In this document: piece after piece, positions 2,616-51,763 of the stretch
Layout: each line of letters starts with the position of its first letter
Position numbering within the stretch: the stretch's first letter is position 1
Assembly: GCA_963787175.1 (NCBI GenBank)
Contig: CAWBCA010000017.1
Span: 120,515 to 184,514 of the forward strand
From: an uncultured Acidobacteriota bacterium
Lineage (GTDB): Bacteria; Acidobacteriota; Vicinamibacteria; Vicinamibacterales; 2-12-FULL-66-21
Direction of reading: 5' to 3'
DNA: 64,000 nt
Notes under the pieces: generated by a model
What the model was told of the DNA's origin: nothing
Databases searched by the model: none
Seen by the model: only the letters and a program-made list of their open reading frames with translations
Program-made: the position numbers and the translations under genes

Positions 2616-2657
2616 GACAGAAGACGCCAGACAGAAGACAGAATTCAGAAGACCAGC
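2616..2657 (+). repeat. six in-register heptads, consensus GACAGAA, in the infC-rpmI spacer
   Basis: Reads GACAGAA GACGCCA GACAGAA GACAGAA TTCAGAA GACCAGC, starting on the base after the infC TAG. The same word in reverse complement (CTTCTGT x2) occurs at 13134-13147. Confidence 0.75.
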
Positions 2658-2881: not shown

Positions 2882-2968
2882 TAACGCCGTGGGAATCGGG
2901 TGAGCGGTCCGACGGTGAGTCAGACAGGGATACGGATCCCGGATCGCGTCAGACAGGTCCAGAAGACA

Positions 2969-3421: not shown

Positions 3422-6554
<3,133 letters not shown>

Positions 6555-6589
6555 GCTCCAGCAAGCCGGTATCAAAGAGGAGATGGTCT

Positions 6590-6871
6590 TTGGCAAAAGG
6601 ACTTGCCACGCGATCGATCGACCTCGAACCGATCGACCGTCTGGAAGAGAAGCTCAAGCTGCTGGTGGGCGTGATCGAGCGGCTGCGCGGCGACAGCGCG
6701 CGCATGGCGGAAGAGAACACGCGCCTGGCGCGCGAGCTCGACTCGGCGCACGTCCGGCTCAACGAAGCGGAAGGCACCAGCGCCGAAATGGCGGCGCTGC
6801 GCGAGGAACGCGACCTGATCCGCGCGCGCGTCGACGAGATGCTGCAGCAGATCGAGTCGCTCAACCTCTGA
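6590..6871 (+). CDS. ZapB-like coiled-coil cell division protein (start uncertain)
   Basis: Coiled-coil peptide LEPIDRLEEKLKLLVGVIERLRGDSARMAEENTRLARELDSAHVRLNEAEG...LQQIESLNL lies at the tail of the 4643..6871 frame. TTG at 6590 is 7-8 nt after AAAGAGGAG. Position just upstream of zapA. Confidence 0.55.
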   Translation: MAKGLATRSIDLEPIDRLEEKLKLLVGVIERLRGDSARMAEENTRLARELDSAHVRLNEAEGTSAEMAALREERDLIRARVDEMLQQIESLNL

Positions 6872-6913
6872 CCGGACACCATCGGCACCACGACCAGCTG
6901 AACGACTGGGGAC

Positions 6914-7244
6914 ATGGAACAGGAACAGGAGTCCCGCGTCATCCACGTCGAGATTCACGGGCAGCGCTACCCGATTCGCAGCGCGCTCGACGCCCAGTAC
7001 GTGGCGGAGCTCGCGGCGTTCGTCGACGAGCGGATGCGGCTGGCGGCGCGCGAGTGTCCCGGCGGGCGACACGCTGAAGATTGCGGTGCTCGCCGCGCTC
7101 AACATCGCGGACGAGTACTTCAGGGCGTCCGACGCCGACCAGGATCGCCGGTCGAGTCTGAAGGACCGCGCCATCGAGCTCGAACGGATGGTGGATCTGG
7201 CCATCGGCCTTGCCGATCCGGACGACGGCCGAGGGGCAAACTAG
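6914..7244 (+). CDS. zapA: cell division protein ZapA, one apparent frameshift
   Basis: MEQEQESRVIHVEIHGQRYPIRSALDAQYVAELAAFVDERMR. After ~7060 the ZapA-like continuation GDTLKIAVLAALNIADEYFRA...RAIELERMVDLAIG is in another frame and ends at TAG 7242-7244. Confidence 0.85.
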
Positions 7245-7247
7245 CTC

Positions 7248-7276
7248 TCGACGCCCGCCTCGGGCTGAAGTAAGAT
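7248..7276 (+). promoter_or_regulatory. candidate sigma70-type promoter for 6S RNA (TCGACG-17 nt-TAAGAT)
   Basis: Hexamers read directly, with a 17-nt spacer. The predicted start at ~7283 sits just 5' of the 6S closing stem. Motif-only support. Confidence 0.3.
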
Positions 7277-7282
7277 CGATCC

Positions 7283-7478
7283 AGGAGTTTCAACGCTCCC
7301 TGCTTTGTTCGTGATGGCTCGGGGGCTCGTTTGAGCCAACGTTTCATCCCGAAGAGAATCGCGACGCCGCGTGGTGTGCATGCCTCTGTAAGAGGAAGCC
7401 TGAAGCGCAGCTTGTGCAGCGGTTCCACCTGCTTTACGCAGGTTCATTCGACCTCCCCACACGGCAAAGCGGGGCCTA
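7283..7478 (+). ncRNA. ssrS: 6S RNA
   Basis: Central region GAGCCAACGUUUCAUCCCGAAGAGAAUCGCGACGCCGCGUGGUGUGCAUGCCUCUGUAAGAGGAAGCCUGAAGCGCAG aligns by eye with E. coli 6S GAGCCGAUAUUUCAUACCACAAGAAUGUGGCGCUCCGCGGUUGGUGAGCAUGC...GAGAAGCCUUAAAACUGCG. Closing stem CCCUGCUUUG (7298-7307) pairs with CAAAGCGGGG (7465-7474). It lies immediately downstream of zapA, as in E. coli. Ends are approximate. Confidence 0.85.
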
Positions 7479-7725
7479 TCCGGTCGGTCCGGCGTGCGAC
7501 TACGGTCGGGGTCGCCTGCACTGACGCGTCCCGCACTTCACGCCGCGACCTCGCACACGAGCACGACAGGACAGCCGCCTCGCCGCACCGCGCCGAGGCA
7601 GGAGTTACAGGCCGCTGCTGCGAGGCCCGACGCGCGGAAGGCGCCGGCACACCGATGGCGCCCGGTGCAGCGATCCCGGCGGGATTCACGCGGGGGACCT
7701 CCCGCCTACTGCGACGGGGACACGC

Positions 7726-9311
7726 ATGGCTGTACCGGCGATTTATCCTCGCCAATGTCGCGATCACCGCGGCCATTGCCGGCGGGCGCCCTCGCCTACT
7801 GGCGGATCAGCGGCACCCGGCGCATGCCGCCTCCACCCTCGACCGCGCCCGCCGCGAGGCCGAGCAGGTCACCCGGCAGGCCGAGCGCGAAGCCGACAAC
7901 CTGCGCAAGGAAGCGGCGCTCGAAGCGCGCGAGCGGGCTCACGAGCTCGCCGCCGCCGCCGAGGTCGCCGGCGCGAACCCGCCAGCAGGAGATCACCGCG
8001 CCTCGAGCAGTCCCTCGCCGACAAGACCCGCGCGCTCGCCGACCGGATGGCCGCGACGCGACCAGCTGGAGACAGGAGCTGCGCGCCAGGGAGCAGGCGG
8101 CCGCGAGCGCGAGCAGGCGGCCGCCGCCGCCGTGGCCCGCGCCGAGCAGCTGCGTGCGCGAGCGCCAGCGCGAGCTGCAGCGCGTCGCCGGGCTGAGCGC
8201 CGACGAGGCGCGCGAGCTGCTGCTCCGTCAGCTCGAAGCCGACGCCCGCCGACAGCGCCGCCAACATGGTCAAGCGGCTCGAGACCGAAGCGCGCGAGAC
8301 CGGCGGCAGCGCGCGCGCAGGAGATCATCGCCGACGCCATCCAGCGCAGCGCCGCCGAGCACGCCATCGAGACGACCGTCTCGGTCGTCGATCTGCCGAG
8401 CGACGACATGAAGGGGCGGATCATCGGCCGCGAAGGGCGGAACATCCGGGCGCTCGAGACAGCTACCGGCGTCGAGCTGATCGTCGACGACACGCCCGGG
8501 GCGATCATCCTGTCCAGCTTCGACCCGTTCCGCCGCGAGGTCGCCCGCCAGGCCATCGAGCGACTGATCGCGGACGGCCGCATCCACCCCGCCCGCATCG
8601 AGGAGGTGGTCGAGAAGGTCAAGGGGGAGATGGACGACACCGTCCGGCGCGAGGGGGAAGCGGCCGCCTTCGAGCTCGGGCTCTACGACCTCCACCCCGA
8701 GGTGCTCCGGCTCATGGGCCGCTCGAAGTTCCGCACCAGCTACGGCCAGAACGTCCTCAACCACTCGAGGGAAGTGGCGTTCCTCGCCGGGATCATGGCG
8801 AGGGAGCTTGGACTGAACAGCCCGGTCGCGGTCCGCGCCGCGTTCCTGCACGACATCGGCAAGGCGATCGACCGCGACCTGCAGGGCACGCACCTCGAGC
8901 TCGGGCTCGACGTTCCTGCGCCAGCACGGCGAAAGCGAGCCCGTGCTGCAGGCGGTGGCCGCGCATCACATGGATATCGACTGGCCGTCGCTCGAAGCGA
9001 TGATGGTGCAGGCGGCCGACGCGATCTCGGCGGCCCGGCCCGGGGCGCGCCGCGAGATCCTCGAGTCCTACGTCAAGCGGCTCGAGAAGCTCGAAGGCAT
9101 CGCCGACTCGTTCCACGGCGTCTCGAAGGCCTTCGCGCTCCAGGCCGGCCGCGAGATCCGCATCGTCGTCGAGAGCGAGAAGGTCTCGGACGAGGAGACG
9201 GTGTGGCTGTCGAACGACATCGCCCGCCGCATCGAGAACGAGCTGGAATATCCCGGCCAAATCAAGGTCACGGTGATCAGGGAGACGCGGTGCTGTCGAC
9301 TACGCCCGGTA
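7726..9311 (+). CDS. rny: ribonuclease Y, many apparent frameshifts
   Basis: N-terminal hydrophobic segment [14 protein letters not shown], then coiled coil [27 protein letters not shown] domain [29 protein letters not shown] domain [17 protein letters not shown]...[10 protein letters not shown] and AVAAHHMD. C-terminus [14 protein letters not shown] plus AVDYAR-stop (TAG 9309-9311) in a shifted frame. At least six frame changes. Confidence 0.9.
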
Positions 9312-9328
9312 GCCGGCGGGCCTCCCTG

Positions 9329-10345
9329 ACGTCACCGGCTCGGAGAGCGCGCACTCATCGACCGCATCCGCCAGCGCTTCCCTGCACCCGCCCCTCCCCT
9401 TCATCGTCGGAATTGGCGACGATGCCGCGATCGTGCGGCCGGAGCGCGACGCGCTGCAGGTGCTGACGACCGACGCGCTGGTCGAGGGCGTTCACTTCGA
9501 CCGCCGCTACTGCTCGCTGGCGGACGTCGGCTATCGCGCGCTCGCCGTCAACGTCAGCGACATCGCCGCGATGGGCGCGGCGCCGCGCCTGGCGCTGCTG
9601 TCGCTTGATGCTTCCCGGACGGATCACCGCCGGGGATGTCGACGCGCTGGCGGACGGCGTCGGCGGCGATGGCGCGCGAGGCGGGCGTCGGCATGGCCGG
9701 CGGCAACCTGACACGTACGCCCGGGCCGCTGGTCGTCGACGTCACGGTCGATCGGGGACGGTCGGTCCGCGCAAGTTCCTGACGCGCGGCGGCGGCCGGC
9801 CGGCGACTGCTGTACGTGAGCGGCGCGCTCGGTGCGGCCGCCGCGGGTCTCGACTGGCTGCGAGCGCACCGAGCCGGGGCCCACGCGATAGTCCGGACGA
9901 CGAGGACGCTGGCCGGCTGCGTGGCGCGCTATCGCCGGCCCGCGCCCCGGGCCCGGCTCGGCGGCGCTCCTGGGCCGCACGCCGCGACGGCGCGGGCCTG
10001 CATGGACCTGAGCGACGGGCTGGCCGACGCCGCCCGCCAGGTCGCCGAGGCGGGCGGCACCGGCGTCGGGCATCGACGCCGCACGGCTGCCGATCGATCC
10101 GGCGCGCAGGCCTGGTTCACGCGCGCGGGATGCGACCCGGTCGCCGCCGCGCTCGAACGCGGGCGACGATTACGAGCTGCTCTTCGCCGTCCCGCCCAAG
10201 GGAGGCGGCCGGCGGCGCGGCGCCGTCCGGCTGGCCCGCGGGCTGCCCGTCACGCGCATCGGCGAGCTCACCGCCGAACCGGACGTCGTCCTGACTGCGC
10301 GACGGCCAGGCGGAGCCGCTGCCGTCCGGCTTCTCACACTTCTGA
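9329..10345 (+). CDS. thiL: thiamine-monophosphate kinase, many apparent frameshifts, start unresolved
   Basis: [128 protein letters not shown], spread over three frames. Stop TGA at 10343-10345. No clean start codon sits in frame with LGERALI. Confidence 0.85.
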
Positions 10346-10351
10346 CGCGCC

Positions 10352-10845
10352 ATGCTTCCCGCCCGGCTCAAACGCTGGCTCGAGCAGCTGCTGCACACCC
10401 ACGACACGCCGCGGCGCACCGCGGCGGCCTACGCGCTCGGGCGTGTTCTTCGGCTTCTCGCCGATGCTGGGGCTGCACACCGTGCTCGGGCCTCGCCGCG
10501 GCCTTCGTCTTCAACCTGAATCGGCTGGCCGTGGTCCTCGGCATCTACTCGAACCTGCCGTGGGTCGTGCCCGCCTACTACACCGTCGCCACGCTGTCGG
10601 GCGCTGCCATCCTGCGCGTGGAGGTGCCGCCCGGGCTGCTCAAGGAGCTGACCGACGCGCTGCAGGGAGCGTCGTGGGGCGAGTTCCGGCAGCTTGGCCC
10701 ATGCGTTGTGGCCGCTGGCGTGGGCCTTCGTGCTCGGCTCGACCCTCGGGGCGGTGATCCTGGCGGCGTTGCCTACCGCGGGTCGCTCGCGATGATCGCG
10801 GCGCACCGCCGCCGCCAGGCGCTCGAACGGGCCGTTCCGAAGTGA
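10352..10845 (+). CDS. DUF2062-family membrane protein, apparent frameshifts, 3' end uncertain
   Basis: [30 protein letters not shown] then [52 protein letters not shown]. Confidence 0.65.
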
Positions 10846-10963
10846 ACCGCCGGTGCACGCAGGCGCGTGCGCTCCACCCGACCGTGCGTCGCTCGTCCCA
10901 TCGACCGGGTGGCATGGGACCATGTGGGCCGTGCATGGCGATCGGCTCTGCCCTGCGCGCTAT

Positions 10964-12964
10964 GCCTCGTGACGGCGTCCCGGTCGCCGGCGATGACGCG
11001 CGGCTGTTCGACTCCTGATCCTTGTACTGGAGCTGATAGAGCTTGTAGTAAATCCCGCGTTGCGCCAGCAGCTCCTGGTGGCTGCCCGACTCCCGCAGCG
11101 CGCCGCGGTGCAGCACCAGGATGTTGTCCATGTCCTGGATCGTCGACAGCCGATGTGCGATGGCTATCGTCGTCCGGCCCGACATCAGCACGCGGAGCGC
11201 GTCGCGGATGAGCAGCTCGGTTTCGGTGTCGACGCTCGACGTCGCTTCGTCGAGGATCAGGACGCGCGGGATCGAAGGCGAGCGCGCGGGCGAACGACAG
11301 CAGCTGCTTCTGTCCGACCGACAGGGTGGCGCCCGCTCCGCGACCGGGCTGGCGTAGCCGAGCGGCAGCCGCTCGATGAACGCAGCTGGCGTGGACCGCG
11401 GCGGCCGCCTCCCTGACCTGCTCGTCGCGTGATCGACGTCGCGCCCCAGCCGGATGTTCGCGGCAATGGTGCCGGAGAACAGGTGGACGTCCTGCAGCAC
11501 CAGGCTGAAGATCCGAGCGCAGGTCGTCGAGCGGCACCTCGCGGACATCCACCCCGTCGACCAGGATGCGTCCCTTGCTGACGTCGTAGAAGCGCAGCAG
11601 CAGGTTGATCAGCGTGGACTTGCCGGCGCCCGTGGCGCCCGACCACCCCGACCCGCTCCCCGGCCGCACCTCGAACGAGACGTCCCGCAGCACGTAGTCC
11701 TCTCCGGAGTAGGCGAACCAGACGTGGTCGAAGAGGATGTGGCCGGGCAGGACGGGCGCCCGCGGCGCCGGGCGTTCGGCGCTCGGCGTTCGCAGCCGAC
11801 GCAATTGTCTGGACTCGTCCGCTCGGTTTACCGACGTGTCGTGACGCCTCAGGCAGCTGGGCTGCGGCCGGCTGCAGCCGGCTGGCCGAACGCGGTCCCG
11901 ATGCCCCGCCACAGCAGGTTCCGCCATTCCGAGCGCCGAGCGCCGGGCGCCGAGCCCCGAGCTGAATGGTCGCCTCGGTGTCCAGCAGCGTGAAGATGCG
12001 CTCGGACGAGGCCATGGCTGCCTGGAGCACGTTGAACTTCTCCGACATGTCGCTGATCGGGCGGAAGAAGCGCTGCGAGTACTGCAGGAATGCGACGAGC
12101 GACCCCAGCGTCAGCGTGCCCTCCATCGTCCAGCCGCCGCCGAACCAGATGATCAGCGCCGAGGCCAGCGCGCCGATCACTTCGATGGCCGGGTAGAACA
12201 CGGCGTAGTAGAAGATCGAGTCGACGTTGGCGTCGCGGTGCGCGCGGTTGATGGTCTCGAAGCGCTCGAAGCTGCGGCGCTCGCGCCGGAACAGCTGCAC
12301 CGTGCCCATGCCGGTGATGTGCTCCTGCAGGAAGGCGTTGATGCGGGCAATCCAGGTGCGGACGGTCCGGTACGAGTCGCGCACGTGCCGGCGGAACCAC
12401 TGCGTGACGAGGACGATCAGCGGCAGCACGGCAAAGGCGACCAGCGCCAGCCGCCAGTCCATGATCACCAGCACGATCATGATGCCGACCAGCGTGAACA
12501 CGTCGCCGAAGATCGACACCACGCCGGCGGTGAACATGTCGTTCAGCACGTCCACGTCGGTGGTGACCCGGGTCATCAGGCGCCCGACCGGGTTGCGGTC
12601 GAAGAACTGGAGGTCGAGCCGCTGCAGGTGACCATAGATCTGCATGCGCAGGTCGAACATGATGCGCTGCCCGGTCATCTGCAGCACCCACGTCTGGAGG
12701 TACTCGAGCAGGAACGAGGCGGCCAGGATCACCAGGAAGACCAGCGCGATCCGGTCGAGGCCCGGCAGGTCCCCGTTCGCGATGTACCTGTCGATCGCCA
12801 GCTTCATCAGGTAGGGCTGCGCCAGCTGCAGCACCGACGCGCAGATGATCGCGCGCAGCGCAATCGCCACGTAGCGCCTTGTACGGCCGCAGGTATCGCA
12901 GCAGCCGGCGCATCAGTCGGGCGTCGTATGCCTTGCCGAGTATCTCTTCGTCGTGGATGGACAT
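10964..12964 (-). CDS. ABC exporter half-transporter (TMD-NBD, MsbA-like), apparent frameshifts, 3' end uncertain, carries a repeat insertion in the TMD-NBD linker
   Basis: N-terminus [32 protein letters not shown] is in ORF 11257..12870. NBD motifs are spread over frames: [65 protein letters not shown]. No clean stop follows [12 protein letters not shown]. Confidence 0.85.
11774..11974. repeat. ~200-nt element with inverted heptad-repeat arms inside the ABC gene linker
   Basis: Left arm CGGCGCC GGGCGTT CGGCGCT CGGCGTT (11774-11801). Right arm CCGAGCG CCGAGCG CCGGGCG CCGAGCC CCGAGCT (11940-11974) is the reverse complement of the same heptad family. The 22-mer GGCGTTCGGCGCTCGGCGTTCG is also present at ~15004-15025. 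The central ~130 nt contains the palindrome CAGCCGGCTG. Confidence 0.7.
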
Positions 12965-12986
12965 GGGCAATTCGGGACGTCACACT

Positions 12987-13154
12987 GGGATCCGGGATCC
13001 GGGCTCCGGGCTCCGGGATCGCGGCGCTCGGCGCTCGGCGCTCGGGGCTCGGGGCTCGGCGCTCGTGTTTCGGAAGCCTCGAGGCCTTGCGTTTGGGCCT
13101 CTGGGGCTCTACCTCCTAGCTCCTAGCTCCTACCTTCTGTCTTCTGTCTTCACG
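12987..13154. repeat. intergenic spacer made of ~24 in-register heptads (archetype of the family)
   Basis: GGGATCC x2, GGGCTCC x2, GGGATCG, CGGCGCT x3, CGGGGCT x2, CGGCGCT. Then a degenerate stretch: CGTGTTT CGGAAGC CTCGAGG CCTTGCG TTTGGGC CTCTGGG GCTCTAC. Then CTCCTAG x2, CTCCTAC, CTTCTGT x2. 13113 minus 12987 is 126 = 18 x 7, so both arrays share one register. It fills the gap between the two ABC genes. Confidence 0.85.
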
Positions 13155-14919
13155 CCTCCGCCAGCTCCTCTTCCAGCTGCTGCTTCCGGAACAGCTCGCT
13201 GTAAATCCCCCCGGCGCGCACGAGCTCGTCGTGCCGCCCGCGCTCCGACGATGCTGCCGCGATCGAGCACGAAAATCTGGTCCGCGTCGCGCACCGTGGA
13301 GATGCGGTGCGAGACGATGATGGATGTCCGTTGATCGCATGACGCCGCGGAGCCGTCCGAGGATCTCCTCCTCCGTATAGGTGTCGACCGCCGACAGGGC
13401 ATCGTCCAGGACGAGGATCCGCGGGTCGACCATCACCGCCCGGGCGAGCGCGGTGCGCTGCTTCTGGCCGCCCGACAGCGTGATGCCACGCTCCCCGACG
13501 ACCGTGTCATACGCCTTGGGGAAGTACTCGAGGTCCTTGTCGAGCCGGGCCACGGCCGCCGCGGCCGACAGGCGCGAGGCCAGCGCTTCCGGGTCGTCCG
13601 GAACCTCCACGCCGAACGCCACGTTCTCCGCGATGCTGTCGGAAAACAGAAACGGCTCCTGCGGGACGAACGCCAATCGCGCTCCGGACGGTCGACAGCG
13701 GAATGTGGCGGACGTCCACGCCGTCGAGGAGCACCGTGCCCGGCGGCGGCTCGTGGAGCCTCGCGAGCAGGCTCAGGAGCGTCGACTTGCCGGAGCCCGT
13801 GGCCCCCACGAACGCGGCCGTCTGGCCCGCCGCGATCGCGAGTGACACGTGACGCAGGACCGGCCGCTCGGCGCCGGGATACGAGAATGTCAGGTCGCGG
13901 ATCTCCACTCGGCCCCGGATGGCCAGCGCACGTCCCTCCGCTGTCGCGCCGGCGTCGTCCACGCCCGGCACCGCATCGAGGACCTCCAGCATGCGCTTCC
14001 ACGAGGCCATGCCCCGCTGGAGGATGTTGGTGACCCAGCCGAACGCGATCATCGGCCACGACAGCATGACGAGATAGGCGTTGAAGGCGACGAAATCGCC
14101 GAGCGTGATGCGGCCCCTGATCACCTCGCGGCTGCCGAGCCACAGCACCAGCACCGATCCGAACCCCAGGAAGAGCGTCATGCTCGGATAGAACAGGCCC
14201 TGGAGGCGGATGAGCACGCGGTTGCGTCGGACGTACTCGGCGTTGGCCTCCCGGAAGCGCTCGATCTCGTGCGGTTCCTGGCCGTATGCGCGCACCACCC
14301 GGATCCCGGAGAGCGCCTCCTGCACCACCGCGCTGATGTCTGAGAGCTGCGCCTGAATCGCCTCGAACCGGGAGTGGATTGCGCTCCCGAAGTACTTCAC
14401 GCTGATCGAGACCAGGGGGAGCGGCAGCAGCGCCATGAGCGTGAGCCGGCCGTCTATCGAGCTCATGAGGATGATCGCCACGACGAAGACGAGCAGCGTG
14501 TTCGACGTGTACATGACCGCCGGACCGATCATCATCCGCACGGCGTTGAGATCGTTCGTGGCGCGCGACATCAGGTCACCCGTGCGCCGCGCCTGGTAGT
14601 AGGCGAGCGGCATCTGCTGCAGGCGGGCGAAGAAGTCGTTACGGATGTCGAGCTCGATGTCGCGCGACGCGCCGATGAGAATCCGGCGCATCAGGAACCG
14701 GAAGACGGCACCGAGCATGGCGACCGCCAGGAGGAGCCCGGCATACAGCGCGAGCTTCCCCCGCGTGACGCCGGCGGTGAGATCGTCGATCGCGTGCTTC
14801 AGGATCCAGGGCGACAGCAGCTGGATCGAAGTCGTGACGAGCACGCATGTCAGGCCGAGCAGGAACGCGCGACGATAACGGAGGACGTACGGCAGCAGAC
14901 GACGAAACGCGAAACCCAT
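13150..14919 (-). CDS. ABC exporter half-transporter (TMD-NBD), apparent frameshifts in the NBD
   Basis: Start [19 protein letters not shown] is internal to ORF 13507..15132. The TMD is intact. NBD motifs: [65 protein letters not shown]. End is [15 protein letters not shown]-stop (TCA at 13150-13152 on the plus strand). Confidence 0.9.
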
Positions 14920-14953
14920 CGGCCTTGAGTATAGCGGGTGGGGAATGGAGATC

Positions 14954-15051
14954 GAGGGGCTCGATCGGGGGAGGCTCGATGGGGATCCGGGATCCGGGGG
15001 CTCGGCGTTCGGCGCTCGGCGTTCGGGGTTCGATTCGGGCGACTCGGCAAG
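14954..15051. repeat. heptad-repeat array upstream of the second ABC gene
   Basis: GGGATCC x2 (14982-14995), then GGGGGCT CGGCGTT CGGCGCT CGGCGTT CGGGGTT CGATTCG. It is preceded by ATCGAGGGGCTCG / ATCGGGGGAGGCTCG. Shares words and word order with 12987-13063. Confidence 0.8.
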
Positions 15052-15149
15052 CGGGCTGCCGTTTGTTCGTGTTATCCTTGCGTGCCTTTCCCAGCAGGCT
15101 CCGCTGCCCTCTCCGGGCATGACTACAACCAATCGGGGCGAGAGACGTC

Positions 15150-15968
15150 ATGCGCATGACAGCTGCAGCGGGAGTTGTGTTTTCACTGGTAGTCTTTGCC
15201 TTTCCCTCGTCGGTTTCGGCTCAGTCCGACACACAGACCCCATCCGACCGGGCGACCGGCGAGACCTACCACGTGGAGATCGGCGGAATGTTCTGGCGGC
15301 CGGGGCCGGAGGTCACGATTACCAGTGAGTCGCTCGGGATCATCGGGTCGACGATCGACTTCGTCACCGACCTCGGCATCGAGAAGCAGTCGTTCAAACA
15401 GCTCAAGATCGTGCTGCGCCCCAGCACCAGGACGAAGTTCCGCTTCGAGTACACCCCGATCAGCTACACAACGGAGGCGATCCTCAGGCGTCCGCTGATC
15501 TTCAACGGCATCAGCTATCCGATTGCCCTGCCGGTCAACACCGAGCTCGAGTGGAAGGCGTACCGCTTCGGCTTCGAGTTCGACTTCGTGTACGGCAATC
15601 GCGGCTTCGTCGGAGTGCTGCTCGAGGCGAAGTACACCCATGTCGAGGCGACGCTCTCGAACGTGATCGACACCGAGTTCGTGCGCGCGCGGGCGCCGAT
15701 TCCCGCGATCGGATTCATCGGACGCGGCTACCCGGTCTCCAACATCTCGATCACCGGCGAGTTCAGCTTCTTCAAGCTGCCGGAGAGCATCAACGAAGAC
15801 TACCGCGCGAAGTACTACGACTTCGATCTGTATGGGACGCTCAACTTCACCGACAACTTCGGCGCGCAGTTCGGCTATCGCTCCTTCGACGTCTTCTATC
15901 ACGTCGATTCAGACGAGGGCGAACTGCAGCTGAAGGGGCTGTACTTCGGGGGCGTCGTCAGGTTCTAA
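15150..15968 (+). CDS. outer-membrane beta-barrel protein
   Basis: Signal peptide MRMTAAAGVVFSLVVFAFPSSVSAQ. Alternating-hydrophobic strands (KFRFEYTPISY, YRFGFEFDFVY, GVLLEAKYTHVEA). C-terminal YFGGVVRF. Intact ORF. Confidence 0.75.
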   Translation: MRMTAAAGVVFSLVVFAFPSSVSAQSDTQTPSDRATGETYHVEIGGMFWRPGPEVTITSESLGIIGSTIDFVTDLGIEKQSFKQLKIVLRPSTRTKFRFEYTPISYTTEAILRRPLIFNGISYPIALPVNTELEWKAYRFGFEFDFVYGNRGFVGVLLEAKYTHVEATLSNVIDTEFVRARAPIPAIGFIGRGYPVSNISITGEFSFFKLPESINEDYRAKYYDFDLYGTLNFTDNFGAQFGYRSFDVFYHVDSDEGELQLKGLYFGGVVRF

Positions 15969-22199: not shown

Positions 22200-22557
22200 G
22201 GGGGCGACCTAGATTCGACGGAGATATGGTTTCGCAGGATGCGTTGCCGAGGACCATCACCCTCGTAAATCAGATGGAAAAAAACATAACTGCGGACACG
22301 CAGCTCGCTCTCGCAGCCTAAACCCCTGTGAGCGTCCACCCCGGTCAGCCTGCGGGCCGGGATGTGGATGTCATTCCAGCAGGCTGGTTGTCGACGGCCG
22401 TCCCGGACGTTGACGACGAGACTTCTTCGGGGCTGGTTCCTGGCGGTTCTTCGCTGCTTCCTCACGTCAGGGGCGAGACTTTAGAAGCGGATACGCATCG
22501 TAGATTCCTGCGAGGATGTATGTTCGGACCCGGGTGCAAATCCCGGCGCCTCCACCA
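22200..22557 (+). ncRNA. ssrA: tmRNA
   Basis: 5' GGGGGCGACCUAGAUUCGACGG. The 3' end is GGACCCGGGUGCAAAUCCCGGCGCCUCCACCA. The acceptor stem GGGGGCG/CGCCUCC has a G3-U pair. Tag reading frame GCG GAC ACG CAG CTC GCT CTC GCA GCC TAA (22292-22321) encodes ADTQLALAA. Confidence 0.95.
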
Positions 22558-22691: not shown

Positions 22692-23077
22692 CCCAACCGA
22701 GCTATTCTCTGTCCAATAACCATGCCCCGCGCGATCTGACGATCCGACAGCGCTGGAACACTCGGTGTCGGCTCCCGGAGACCTCACGGCATTGAGACGA
22801 GCGCGACTGCTGGCTCGGACAGCGGCAGCGGGCAGTCTCCCCGCTCCGCAACACTGAACGCGCCCGCACGTCGGAGCCACCCCAGGTTCCAACCCCCGAA
22901 CAATTGCGGCTAGCCACTGTTCCCGAACGCACTCGCAAATTCCAAAGCTGCATCGTCGTCGAGGCGATCGAGGGCCATGCGATTGGCGCCGGGACCAGGT
23001 GTCATGCGGCTCGGGTGTACGTTGCCGGACAGCGGACAGCGGACGGCGGTAGAATCCGTGCTCTGCAAGGAGATTCC

Positions 23078-42256: not shown

Positions 42257-43754
42257 TCATTTCGTGACTGGCACGATTCGCAGTTGAACGTCTTGAGTTC
42301 GGCCGGCGGAGATCGTTGTCTCGGCGCTGCCGTTCCCGCCACTGTGCGCCGCGGTCACGAAGTAGCGTCCCATCGGGAGCGGGAACCGTGGGGGACCTGA
42401 GGAATCATCGCTCCGGGTGACACGCTTCCGGTTGCCTTCGGCGTCCCGCGCGGCTGTATAGACCTCATAGGCCACGCCGCGCGCGGGTTGTTCGCCACCG
42501 CCGGCGAGAACGGCGGTCAACCGGAGGATGCCCGCGCGAAGGTTGACGACCTGCTGGGTCGTTCCGGCCGGCGTGACCTCGACCTCCACGTTTGCGGATG
42601 CGCTCCCGTACGCGGCCGTTACGAAGTAGCGACCGGCCGGCAGCAGAAACCGTGCGGAAGCTTCGTACTGATGGTCGCTCCCGGTGACGCGCTTCCGGTT
42701 GCCTTCGGCGTCCCTTGCGTCGTCATAGACCTGATATGCCACGCCCGACAGCGCTTCGGCACCGTCGGCCAGGACAGCGGTCAATCGGAGGATGCCCGCC
42801 CGAAGGTTCAGGATCTGGTGAGTGGGCCCGGCCGGCGTGACCTCGACCTCCACGTTCGCAGACGCGCTTCCGTACGCGGCCGTTACGAAGTAACGTCCGG
42901 CCGGGAGCGGGAACCATGCGGAGGCGGTACTGATGACTACTCCCGGTGATGTGCTTCCGGTGGCCTTCGGCGTTCCGCTCAGCTGTATAGACGTCAAAGG
43001 TGACTCCCCGCGACAGCGGTTCGCCACCGTCGGCCAGGACCGCCGTCAGCCGGAGGCCAGTTGTCGCGGTGGGCGCAGGGGCCCCAGGAGGCTCGGCGCG
43101 ATCCCCGCCAGTCTGTCCCGTCCGATAGACGACCATCGCAAGCAGAAATGCGGCAACCAATGCGAGAGCCGAGGTCAGCCTCACCCAACGTTCGCGGGAT
43201 GAGTTGGGTGGGACGGCGCCGATATCGGGCCCCGGAATGACCGGCTGTAGAGCACCCGGCGGATGGACGGGCGGCAGCGGCGGCACGGTTTCTGACGCCG
43301 GGGTCCGGCTGGGTGGCGCGCCGATGAGGCGGGCGAGGTCGGCCGTCAGTTTCTGGAACGCCTCCGCCTGCGGGGCGCCATCCCACTCAATCATCGGCGC
43401 GGCCTGAATGCGGCCAAAACCGAGCGGAGGGCTGACCTCATCGATGACCACAGGGATCAGCACGCCGCGCTTCAAGCCGACGTCGGCCTCTTCGCGCACC
43501 CAACTCGAGGCGACCGAGTCCCGAGACCACACGACCACCACGCACCGCGCGTCCGCGAGCGCCTCGGCGATCACCTGGTCGAACGTCCTGCCAGCCGGGA
43601 TCTGTGGATCCCACCACACGGACCAGCCGTGACCGGACAGAGCGTCGGCCAGCAACCGGACTCGGGAGAGATCCTGGCGAGCGTAGCTGATGAAGATGTC
43701 GCTCACAGGTGGGCGGGGCCGAAGTCCAGGGCCTTCACGGCGCCAACGCCGCAA
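42257..43754 (-). CDS. TIR domain - TM helix - three tandem ~88-aa repeat domains, one apparent frameshift
   Basis: TIR segment SDIFISYARQDLSRVRLLADALSGHGWSVWWD...CVVVVWSRDSVASSWVREEADVG. TM segment WVRLTSALALVAAFLLAMVVY. Repeats are of the type LRLTAVLADG.E.L.GVAY.VY..ARDAEGNRKRVT....LPAGRYFVTAAYGSASANVEVEVTPAG. An alternative GTG start is at 43706. Confidence 0.8.
42290..43080 (-). repeat. three tandem ~264-nt coding repeats inside the TIR gene
   Basis: GCCGGCGTGACCTCGACCTCCACGTT occurs at 42567 and 42831 (period 264 nt), with a more diverged copy at ~42302. Long near-identical stretches include CCGTACGCGGCCGTTACGAAGTA. Confidence 0.8.
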
Positions 43755-51008: not shown

Positions 51009-51519
51009 GATGATGAAGAAAGAGCCCCGTCGACATCAGCCACAGGACGCGCAGGCAGCCAACAGCAAACGGATAACCAACAGAAAGCGCCCACAGAATC
51101 GGCCGGTCAGGGCGGGCGGCGGAATGTCTGCGGCTCATGTCGTCGAATGACAGAGCGGGATTATGGCTCAGATGACAGAATGCTTCAGTCATCGCTCAGA
51201 CCAATCACTTCAAATCACTTGCGATGGCTCAGGAATGCCGGGATTCATGGGGCGGAACCGTGACTCCCTCTGCTGCAGCATCGAGAGATCGCGACAGGAA
51301 AAAGACCGCTCCTACCGACCGCCCGCAACGGTTGGAGGTTCATAAGAGCGTCTTGCCTGAAAGCAATTGATGAATCGCTCGACCAGTCGGCGGGTTCGAG
51401 GTCGTGTATTGGATCGAATCGCACCGTGTCAGGTTCGACCCGGATGCCGGCCAACCAGCCCGGTGGCTGGACTGATTCCTCGACTAGCCCCACAGCGGAC
51501 CGCGGACGCCTGATCCGCT

Positions 51520-51591
51520 GATCCCGGTCTCTGCCTTTGGGCTTTCGGCGGGATCCCGGCCGCAGATCACCACACATCCCGGATCCCGAAA
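51520..51591. repeat. heptad-family module in a long intergenic region
   Basis: CTCTGCC TTTGGGC TTTCGGC GGGATCC CGGCCGC ... CCCGGAT CCCGAAA. Shares TTTGGGC and GGGATCC words with the loci at 13.0, 15.0 and 16.0 kb. Confidence 0.55.
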
Positions 51592-51763
51592 CAGTGCGCG
51601 CTTTCGTCACACGACAACTTATCCCTGCGTTCACTTGTGTTGATGTAGGGCGGGGGCTTCCGCCTCCGCCTCCGCTACGGCGGACCACCGTAGCCTTGGC
51701 GAAGGTGGTTAGACCCCTCGCTCACGTTGCGCGGCTGCACCCGTGTAGAATCGCCTGGCCACT

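Follow-up and report, generated by a model that had tools for sequence, protein, structure and literature searches.

What occupies the spacer between two adjacent ABC exporter genes, here termed ABC1 and ABC2, in a member of the Acidobacteriota, and how did it come to be there? The pair lies on the minus strand of a 64,000-nt stretch of DNA from an uncultured bacterium of the order Vicinamibacterales (assembly GCA_963787175.1, contig CAWBCA010000017.1, positions 120,515 to 184,514; hereafter the window), and much of the DNA between the two genes is built of tandem 7-nt units. We suggest, with a probability of roughly 0.65, that this spacer is a patchwork of heptanucleotide microsatellites, for which slippage, joined now and then by inverted copying, is the most likely driver. 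Slippage and template switching are the processes that we infer, and we attribute no specific function to the arrays. The locus adds a new host lineage to a known class of repeats, with some distinctive traits: several unrelated words (7-nt units) within one spacer, a very large vocabulary, and in-frame growth within a protein linker.

Tandem Repeats Finder (TRF) returns four period-7 arrays in the spacer (Table 1), and the parse into heptads proposed in an earlier sequence-only reading of the window is accurate as written. Identity at lag 7 is 0.88 in both array blocks (12987-13065 and 13113-13151), and the arrays have the head-to-tail 7-nt units, at least about 2.5 copies and high identity that characterize long simple sequence repeats (SSRs). 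That reading took the entire spacer to be heptadic and gave its length as 168 nt, a range that reaches into two coding bases and the stop codon (13150-13152) of ABC1; the spacer in fact measures 185 nt, of which 118 are heptadic, and in its center (13066-13112) identity at lag 7 is 0.25, which is background, against 0.49 at lag 8. Of three supposed copies of CTCCTAG, two are exact and the third is the variant CTCCTAC. The two clean arrays do lie 126 nt, or 18 times 7, apart, but the argument from this that the register never slips is uninformative, because no phase is defined between arrays of unrelated words, each of which can be divided anywhere, and agreement is expected by chance once in seven; it is weakened further by a local rate of about one 1-nt indel per 300 nt.

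Three of the spacer words recur in the window above the expectation from shuffled sequence, as had been proposed: GGGATCC at 9 matches versus 1.45 expected (including 2934, 14982 and 51574), CGGCGCT at 18 versus 8.3 (including 11770-11790, 11932-11959 and 15003-15023) and GACAGAA at 3 versus 0.17 (including 2630). The proposal fails for CTCCTAG, which has no second site in the window beyond the spacer. The block at 14982-15032, upstream of ABC1, repeats two words of the 3' half of the spacer in identical order.

Among periods 4 to 12, period 7 alone yields arrays that score 12 or more in the window, where five were observed against approximately none in Markov simulations. A scan of a species-representative genome collection with the ABC1 protein yielded 80 loci from Vicinamibacterales, and the resulting survey covers the window and 83 loci, or 1.57 Mb, with one syntenic neighborhood per genome and a coding/noncoding division based on a crude gene call. 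In this material, period 7 is far ahead of all other periods, the comparison by which the sequence-only reading had proposed that its repeats be judged: 115 arrays have period 7, 22 period 8, 15 period 3, 10 period 14, 8 period 9 and 5 period 6, with other periods near zero, and a second-order Markov simulation produced no period-7 arrays at all. The period-3 arrays are almost all coding, whereas 80 of the 115 period-7 arrays fall in the 22% of the sequence called noncoding, which bears out the description of the repeats as dispersed and mostly noncoding. They do not form the single family that had been envisaged, since 75 different canonical words, most of them without GGG, occur among 99 locus-word combinations. 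The period-8 arrays, the second commonest class, are noncoding in 19 of 22 cases; they are found in the same kinds of spacer and sometimes form inverted pairs (locus L037, 11790-11830; locus L023, 2680-2790).

Comparison with orthologous junctions indicates how the arrays change. One relative, L085, comes from a different sample as an Illumina k141 contig; its ABC protein is 95% identical and its ABC1 gene 92.6% identical at the nucleotide level. Its spacer has the same blocks in the same order as that of the window, namely AGCYAGG units after the stop codon, a nonrepetitive center, then GAGCGCC-type and GGATCCC units, and finally 20 conserved nt ahead of the ATG, with different numbers of units: about 8 to 9 AGCYAGG units versus 3 to 4 in the window, 4 GAGCGCC-type units versus 6, and about 7 GGATCCC-type units versus 4. 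These differences support an origin by slippage or by recombination, the latter of which had been offered as one possibility. An orthologous GGATCCC array of at least three units is present in L001, and L087 has three units of the GAAGACA-type poststop array, to which the NNCAGAA units of L003 are related. In L001, L087 and L003 (95%, 87% and 88% protein identity, respectively), the poststop units are related by single changes and the spacers are otherwise divergent. The phase of a YAG triplet is fixed in the poststop units of the closest relatives (NNCAGAA, GGTAGAA, ATCAGCT and GTCAGCT).

Across the wider set, the ABC1-ABC2 junction measures 0 nt in about 20 genomes and 20 to 340 nt in the others, and the spacers that exist are mostly heptad arrays of other words, such as GGCAAAG, CTGGAAG (14 units), GGTAACT and GAAGTCT. 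Judged from these sequences, the simplest history would be one in which arrays grew repeatedly and independently, and turned over rapidly, at a length-tolerant junction. A second, nonheptad type of repeat also occurs here: hairpins with a core of the GGGGGTGGGGCCCC type lie shortly upstream of the ABC2 start in L002 (11885-11915), L003 (2005-2090), L004 (11870-12100) and L086 (1853-1875), and in L004 a unit of about 100 nt that holds such a hairpin is present in three tandem copies.

The arrays are not strictly noncoding, as had been supposed, for they also lie in frame inside ABC2, in the linker between the membrane and ATPase domains. This linker is 247 nt long in the window (11740-11985) and 63 to 72 nt in distant relatives, with a range of 63 to 231 nt among relatives as a whole, and the additional sequence consists of heptad arrays, often as inverted pairs; in the window, the arms at 11763-11786 and 11929-11952 show 92% complementarity across an interval of 142 nt. 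Translation of the linker arrays gives seven-residue repeats, such as PGPSSRV/PSPGSRV in L032 and EPRAPSA in L003. The reading frame is kept in 60 of 63 linkers; those out of frame are in the window, L006 and L008, and an in-frame stop occurs in L026, all of them long-read or error-prone assemblies. Heptad tracts can presumably become protein linker only where the net change in length is a multiple of three.

A stop codon is no more than 5 nt away from 16 of 59 arrays, where random placement gives 5.4 ± 1.9; growth from a zero-length junction predicts such an excess. Of 28 pairs of neighboring arrays within 300 nt of each other, 11 are inverted copies with no more than one mismatch and only one is a direct copy, and this agrees with the strong folding of orthologous spacers, 18 of 32 of which have z scores below -2. 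In three genomes, inverted GGGTAAT/ATTACCC pairs stand upstream of a paralogous ABC gene and next to a divergent small gene (L049, about 15040-15095; L063, about 15530-15590; L065, about 15810-15870), with both the word and the hairpin layout conserved.

We suggest that the arrays grew in place in length-tolerant DNA between co-transcribed genes that would have abutted in the ancestor. Slipped-strand mispairing or unequal exchange would add and remove units; units altered by point mutation would be amplified in turn, yielding related runs such as GACAGAA, GGTAGAA, AGCTAGG and AGCCAGG; a small set of words would be reused in each genome; and nearby inverted copying, most simply by template switching, would give rise to hairpin-capable pairs. 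The sequence of the arrays is probably not read by any specific factor, and their likely consequences are generic: the spacer would uncouple translation of ABC2 from that of ABC1 and add hairpin and G-quadruplex potential, and tracts of mutable length would come to lie beside a promoter and within a protein linker.

Several observations weigh against this account. Slippage provides no reason why 7 nt should be favored over 5, 8, 10 or 11 nt, and by itself it does not explain why array pairs more than 400 nt apart at the same locus share an identical word in 15.2% of cases, compared with 1.0% between loci, nor the preponderance of inverted over direct neighbors. In L002, a composite block, (GCTTCCN)n - GCTAAGGTTCCT - (GAGCGCC)n, with a 12-nt linker, is duplicated at 8040-8150 and 9785-9940; the two copies flank a gene for a 526-residue esterase (Pfam GCE_fung) that is missing at this position in other relatives, which suggests gene insertion or duplication through the arrays. 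A metagenome search for the same strain returned only the nonorthologous locus L084, an unrelated 1.8-kb contig in which four to five copies of CTCCTAG follow an FKBP-like gene (1300-1370) and share their end variants (CTCTAC... and ...CTCCTAC) with the array in the window. This array and the L002 duplication jointly hint at some copying between sites. Finally, the survey design described above sets the breadth of the comparison, the evidence consists of assembled contigs only, and the window is error prone around the spacer.

Similar heptamers are known from other bacteria. According to a 2007 survey as relayed in PMC4692102 and PMC4679880, heptamers are overrepresented among the SSRs of many bacterial genomes and form the most abundant class of long SSR in most prokaryotic genomes, and the only proposal for the 7-nt unit conveyed by these two sources is that it reflects the length of DNA contacted by polymerase. 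The arrays described here resemble those long-SSR heptamers in outnumbering other unit lengths and in their enrichment outside genes, with units that are multiples of three being coding, and slippage has been proposed for that class too. One published parallel is the GGGAATC repeat of Xanthomonas, present at 186 intergenic loci in arrays of 2 to 26 units, with 70 convergent inverted pairs (Rehm et al. 2015, PMC4692102); its length and sequence differ between two species at conserved gene contexts, the repeats form G-quadruplexes in vitro, and GGGGA(T/C)T heptamer repeats are known from Nostoc (PMC4692102). These share with our arrays an intergenic position, inverted pairs and variation between species, Xanthomonas is likewise GC rich, and the G3N4 geometry matches that of GGGATCC/GGGCTCC at 12987-13017. 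In contrast to the single dominant G-rich word of Xanthomonas, unrelated words are joined in one spacer here, most of the vocabulary across relatives lacks a G tract, G3 tracts with 4-nt loops are found in the spacer at 12987-13017 only, and growth has occurred in frame inside a protein linker.

Geobacter metallireducens carries GGGACCG/GGACCGG at 49 intergenic and intragenic sites and five copies of MTYCTGA at 15 sites (PMC2700814). The resemblance lies in a GC-rich word close to GGATCCC/GGACCCG, in CTGA-containing words and in the presence of arrays both between and within genes; the Geobacter repeats have a fixed copy number of four or five and form one family by BLAST, whereas the units and words of our arrays vary freely. 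The TAACTGA repeats of marine Beggiatoaceae are intergenic direct repeats of two to six copies with a scattered phylogeny and no known mechanism (MacGregor 2015, PMC4679880). Related words occur in our survey (GGTAACT in L015; GAACTGA in L049 and L063), but the Beggiatoaceae have a single word in one orientation, mostly directly upstream of start codons, while our arrays draw on many words, show no bias in orientation and favor the stop side. No mention of heptad repeats in Acidobacteriota, Vicinamibacterales or Vicinamibacter was found in the literature examined.

The short tandemly repeated repetitive (STRR) sequences of Calothrix and Anabaena are short tandem heptamers, with several words per genome, in intergenic and operon-internal spacers, and STRR1 and STRR3 carry a CAGT/ACTG core. 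The same tetramer is the most enriched in our words (CAGT/ACTG 5.8-fold, AGCT 4.2-fold and CTGA/TCAG 3.3-fold), but phylum, GC content and words differ: the host belongs to the Vicinamibacterales, the STRR heptamers are absent as a family, and only the CAGT core is common to both. In Calothrix PCC7601, three tandemly repeated heptanucleotides have been described (PMC4692102). The sequence-only reading named STRR as the only well-known bacterial analogue and knew of no such elements in GC-rich soil phyla, a view superseded by the cases from Xanthomonas, Geobacter and the Beggiatoaceae.

An alternative that we regard as unlikely is that selection maintains the arrays as cis-acting elements. They might serve as an RNA hairpin or processing site by which the ABC1:ABC2 ratio is tuned, as a template-strand G-quadruplex, as periodic sites at which a single-strand-binding protein attaches, or as a length-dependent expression switch, akin to phase variation, beside the ABC1 promoter and within ABC2. 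A long spacer is indeed kept throughout the closest clade (118 to 342 nt in L001 to L005, L085 and L087), but conservation does not extend past these closest relatives, and about 20 genomes lack the spacer altogether. GGATCCC and GACAGAA are on the sense strand at every window site examined; among 45 arrays in co-directional spacers, however, there is no overall strand bias with respect to transcription (G/C, P = 0.06; A/T, P = 0.19; purine, P = 0.06), so that the orientation seen in the window is not general. The YAG triplet is in phase in five related spacers. A reading of the AGCUAGG repeats as (UAG-N4)n sites of the HutP type was considered and rejected, as common descent explains the phase and other words have no YAG.

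Folding likewise shows no sign of RNA-level selection. Were selection acting through G-U pairs, sense and antisense strands should fold unequally; they fold equally in the 32 orthologous spacers (19 versus 13; P = 0.44). The focal spacer is not an inverted pair, and its sense-strand RNA is unstructured (z = -1.33); the plus-strand RNA reaches z = -2.95, only through G-U pairing of the two left arrays and on a strand with no evidence of transcription, and the spacer folded as DNA gives z = -1.94. A role as three-frame stop signals was rejected too, since stop triplets are not biased to the sense strand (10 sense versus 7 antisense units in 30 stop-adjacent arrays). No Rfam covariance model matches the spacer at its gathering score, the sole match being a subthreshold one to CRISPR-DR29 (24 bits versus a gathering score of 39) at 11762-11796, and a scan of the spacer for promoters and terminators found no promoter-like site and a single terminator-like match on the antisense strand. 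The one concrete structural candidate in the spacer is the G3N4 motif at 12987-13017, which matches the Xanthomonas geometry and consists of five G3 tracts with ATCC or CTCC loops on the template strand; it is confined to this one array and is one of two plus-strand G-quadruplex motifs in the window.

Arrays also adjoin a possible promoter. A conserved box, CCACCCGCTATACTC, which includes TATACT, lies on the minus strand at 14927-14941, about 8 to 12 nt upstream of the ABC1 ATG, and is present in the window, L001, L085 and L087; the arrays upstream of ABC1 are directly 5' of it and are missing in L087. On sequence grounds, the box is a possible -10 element, in which case the leader would be very short or missing; the heptad arrays occupy the expected -35 position, and their length could affect the geometry of the ABC1 promoter. 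In ABC2, a change of one 7-nt unit would shift the reading frame, as a switch would require, but the frame is intact in nearly all linkers and the exceptions fall in long-read or error-prone assemblies, which provides no evidence for on/off switching.

Another explanation, which we consider distinctly improbable, invokes, in place of ordinary slippage, a word-independent heptad generator in the Vicinamibacterales; candidates would be polymerases, primases or repair activities that advance by 7 nt and are coupled to fold-back copying. Such an activity would build spacers de novo where genes had once overlapped, lay down complementary arrays as hairpins, use the words typical of a genome again at unlinked sites and lengthen protein linkers by 21 nt (7 residues) at a time. 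The CAGT/CTGA-rich vocabulary, which recurs in the heptamers of cyanobacteria, Geobacter and the Beggiatoaceae, would then indicate a single mechanism common to distant phyla. Slippage leaves three features unexplained in the published cases as well, namely the favored length of 7 nt, the repeated use of words in one genome and the pairing of inverted arrays, and these give such a mechanism its small chance.

We give still less weight to the possibility, raised in the sequence-only reading, that the repeats are mobile. On this explanation, the arrays would be parts of small nonautonomous elements with heptad arms, resembling MITEs (miniature transposable elements with inverted repeats) or repetitive extragenic palindromes and bacterial interspersed mosaic elements (REP/BIME), that insert at gene ends and occasionally in tolerant linkers. 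Recurrence of words within a genome, inverted pairs and strongly folding spacers, the duplicated block of L002 and the L084 array with its identical end variant would all fit, as would presence or absence at orthologous sites: upstream of ABC1, L087 has an empty site where the window carries an insertion of about 125 nt. Like REP/BIME and MITEs, the arrays are extragenic, include hairpin-capable inverted repeats and vary in presence among relatives. Unlike them, they have no conserved sequence and their arms are internally periodic. No shared termini or interior are evident, as the flanks of same-word arrays are at background similarity in 15 of 17 within-genome pairs, and no target-site duplication was found at the boundary between the window and L087, a single case. 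A vocabulary of 75 words exceeds what a single transposase would be expected to recognize, many arrays are single and unpaired, and the differing unit numbers of orthologous arrays point to slippage in place.

An artifact of assembly or polishing in an error-prone long-read contig is very unlikely, for although the ABC genes contain frequent 1-nt indels and frameshifts extend to pheT, rny, zapA and an AIRS-family gene, orthologous arrays of the same words are present in the independent Illumina assemblies L085 and L001, array density, at 6.7 per 100 kb among long-read-style contigs and 7.7 per 100 kb among the remaining assemblies, is not tied to one sequencing technology, and single-base consensus errors do not make phased 7-nt repeats.

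The quality of the window nonetheless bears on the counts given for it. Compared with L001, ABC1 and ABC2 contain about 12 single-base insertions and 2 deletions, mostly outside homopolymer runs, and the further frame changes were located by tblastn with L003 proteins over 4400-15000; an intact open reading frame of 984 codons is present elsewhere in the window. About 13 indels in genes otherwise 88 to 95% identical to intact orthologs are unlike pseudogene decay, and we therefore read the frameshifts as probable local consensus error of a long-read assembly over at least 4.4 to 15 kb rather than as pseudogenes. Exact unit counts in the window consequently need caution.

The window has a GC content of 67%, and ABC1 and ABC2 form a pair of the heterodimeric ABC exporter type (Table 1). 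The reconstructed ABC1 product, which ends in EELAEA, is 95% identical to a metagenomic protein, P0001 (Pfam ABC_membrane and ABC_tran), and its relatives are named as Vicinamibacterales of the phylum Acidobacteriota. The ABC1 gene starts with an ATG at 14917-14919 and ends with the TGA (TCA on the plus strand) of which the position is given above; the ABC2 start codon is at 12962-12964. The gene order thrS-infC-rpmI-rplT-pheST-zapBA-rny-...-ABC2-ABC1 is common to the window and its relatives.

Table 1. Genes, spacer components and heptad arrays at and around the ABC1-ABC2 junction (window coordinates)
Feature	Position	Strand	Details
Spacer, ABC1 stop to ABC2 start	12965..13149	-	185 nt
Array GGGATCC x2, GGGCTCC x2, GGGATCG	12987..13021	+	mRNA strand GGATCCC/GGAGCCC; TRF 12987-13020, 4.9 copies, 92% matches
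Array CGGCGCT x3, CGGGGCT x2, CGGCGCT	13022..13065	+	mRNA strand GAGCGCC/GAGCCCC; TRF 6.3 copies, 94% matches
Nonperiodic center with small hairpin (~13075-13108)	13066..13112		Lag-7 identity 0.25; hairpin in folds
Array CTCCTAG x2 + CTCCTAC	13113..13133	+	mRNA strand AGCTAGG/AGGTAGG; TRF 13109-13132, 3.4 copies
Array CTTCTGT x2.6	13134..13151	+	mRNA strand GAAGACA; begins inside ABC1 TGA stop; TRF 100% matches
GGGATCC x2.4 then TCGGCGT x4.4	14982..15032	+	Upstream of ABC1; TRF
GACAGAA array, infC-rpmI spacer	2616..2653	+	Sense strand; TRF
Two CGGATCN units, rpmI-rplT spacer	2934..2947	+	
Left arm, CGGCGYT units, ABC2 linker (membrane/ATPase domains)	11763..11792	+	TRF
Right arm, CCGAGCG units, ABC2 linker	11929..11962	+	TRF
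ABC1	13150..14919	-	Fused membrane-domain and ATPase-domain ABC exporter gene; at least 3 frameshifts in assembly
ABC2	10985..12964	-	Partner ABC exporter gene; many 1-nt indels; 3' end uncertain (~10985)

In annotation, long operon gaps in Vicinamibacterales and low-complexity protein inserts such as the ABC2 linker can be read as heptad-repeat tracts, with no need of an unknown RNA, a mobile element or misassembly. For one junction, the clade provides an unusually clean series for comparison, which spans 0 to 340 nt and includes dozens of independent fillings and both single and inverted arrays; a second series is that of a coding linker which has grown from 63 nt to 247 nt. Both could be brought to bear on the question, posed since 2007, of why seven bases are favored and how a word spreads within a genome. 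The focal locus itself leaves the seven-base question unanswered and indicates no specific function.

Other repeats and RNA genes were seen in the window. One intergenic region (51480-51600) combines two units of GCGGACC, CTGATCC with an 8-nt period, CTTTGGG/CTTTCGG and two GGGATCCC palindromes, and an array of three CGGACAG units at 23026-23044 lies upstream of a plus-strand ATG at about 23078. A tandem repeat of 264 nt (42407-43056; 2.5 copies, 80% matches) is part of a minus-strand coding sequence; its translation is a repeated domain of 88 residues, in a protein with an N-terminal region (DIFISYARQD...) that looks TIR-like. A 6S RNA (77 bits) is located at 7294-7479 and a tmRNA (154 bits), with the tag peptide ADTQLALAA, at 22200-22557.

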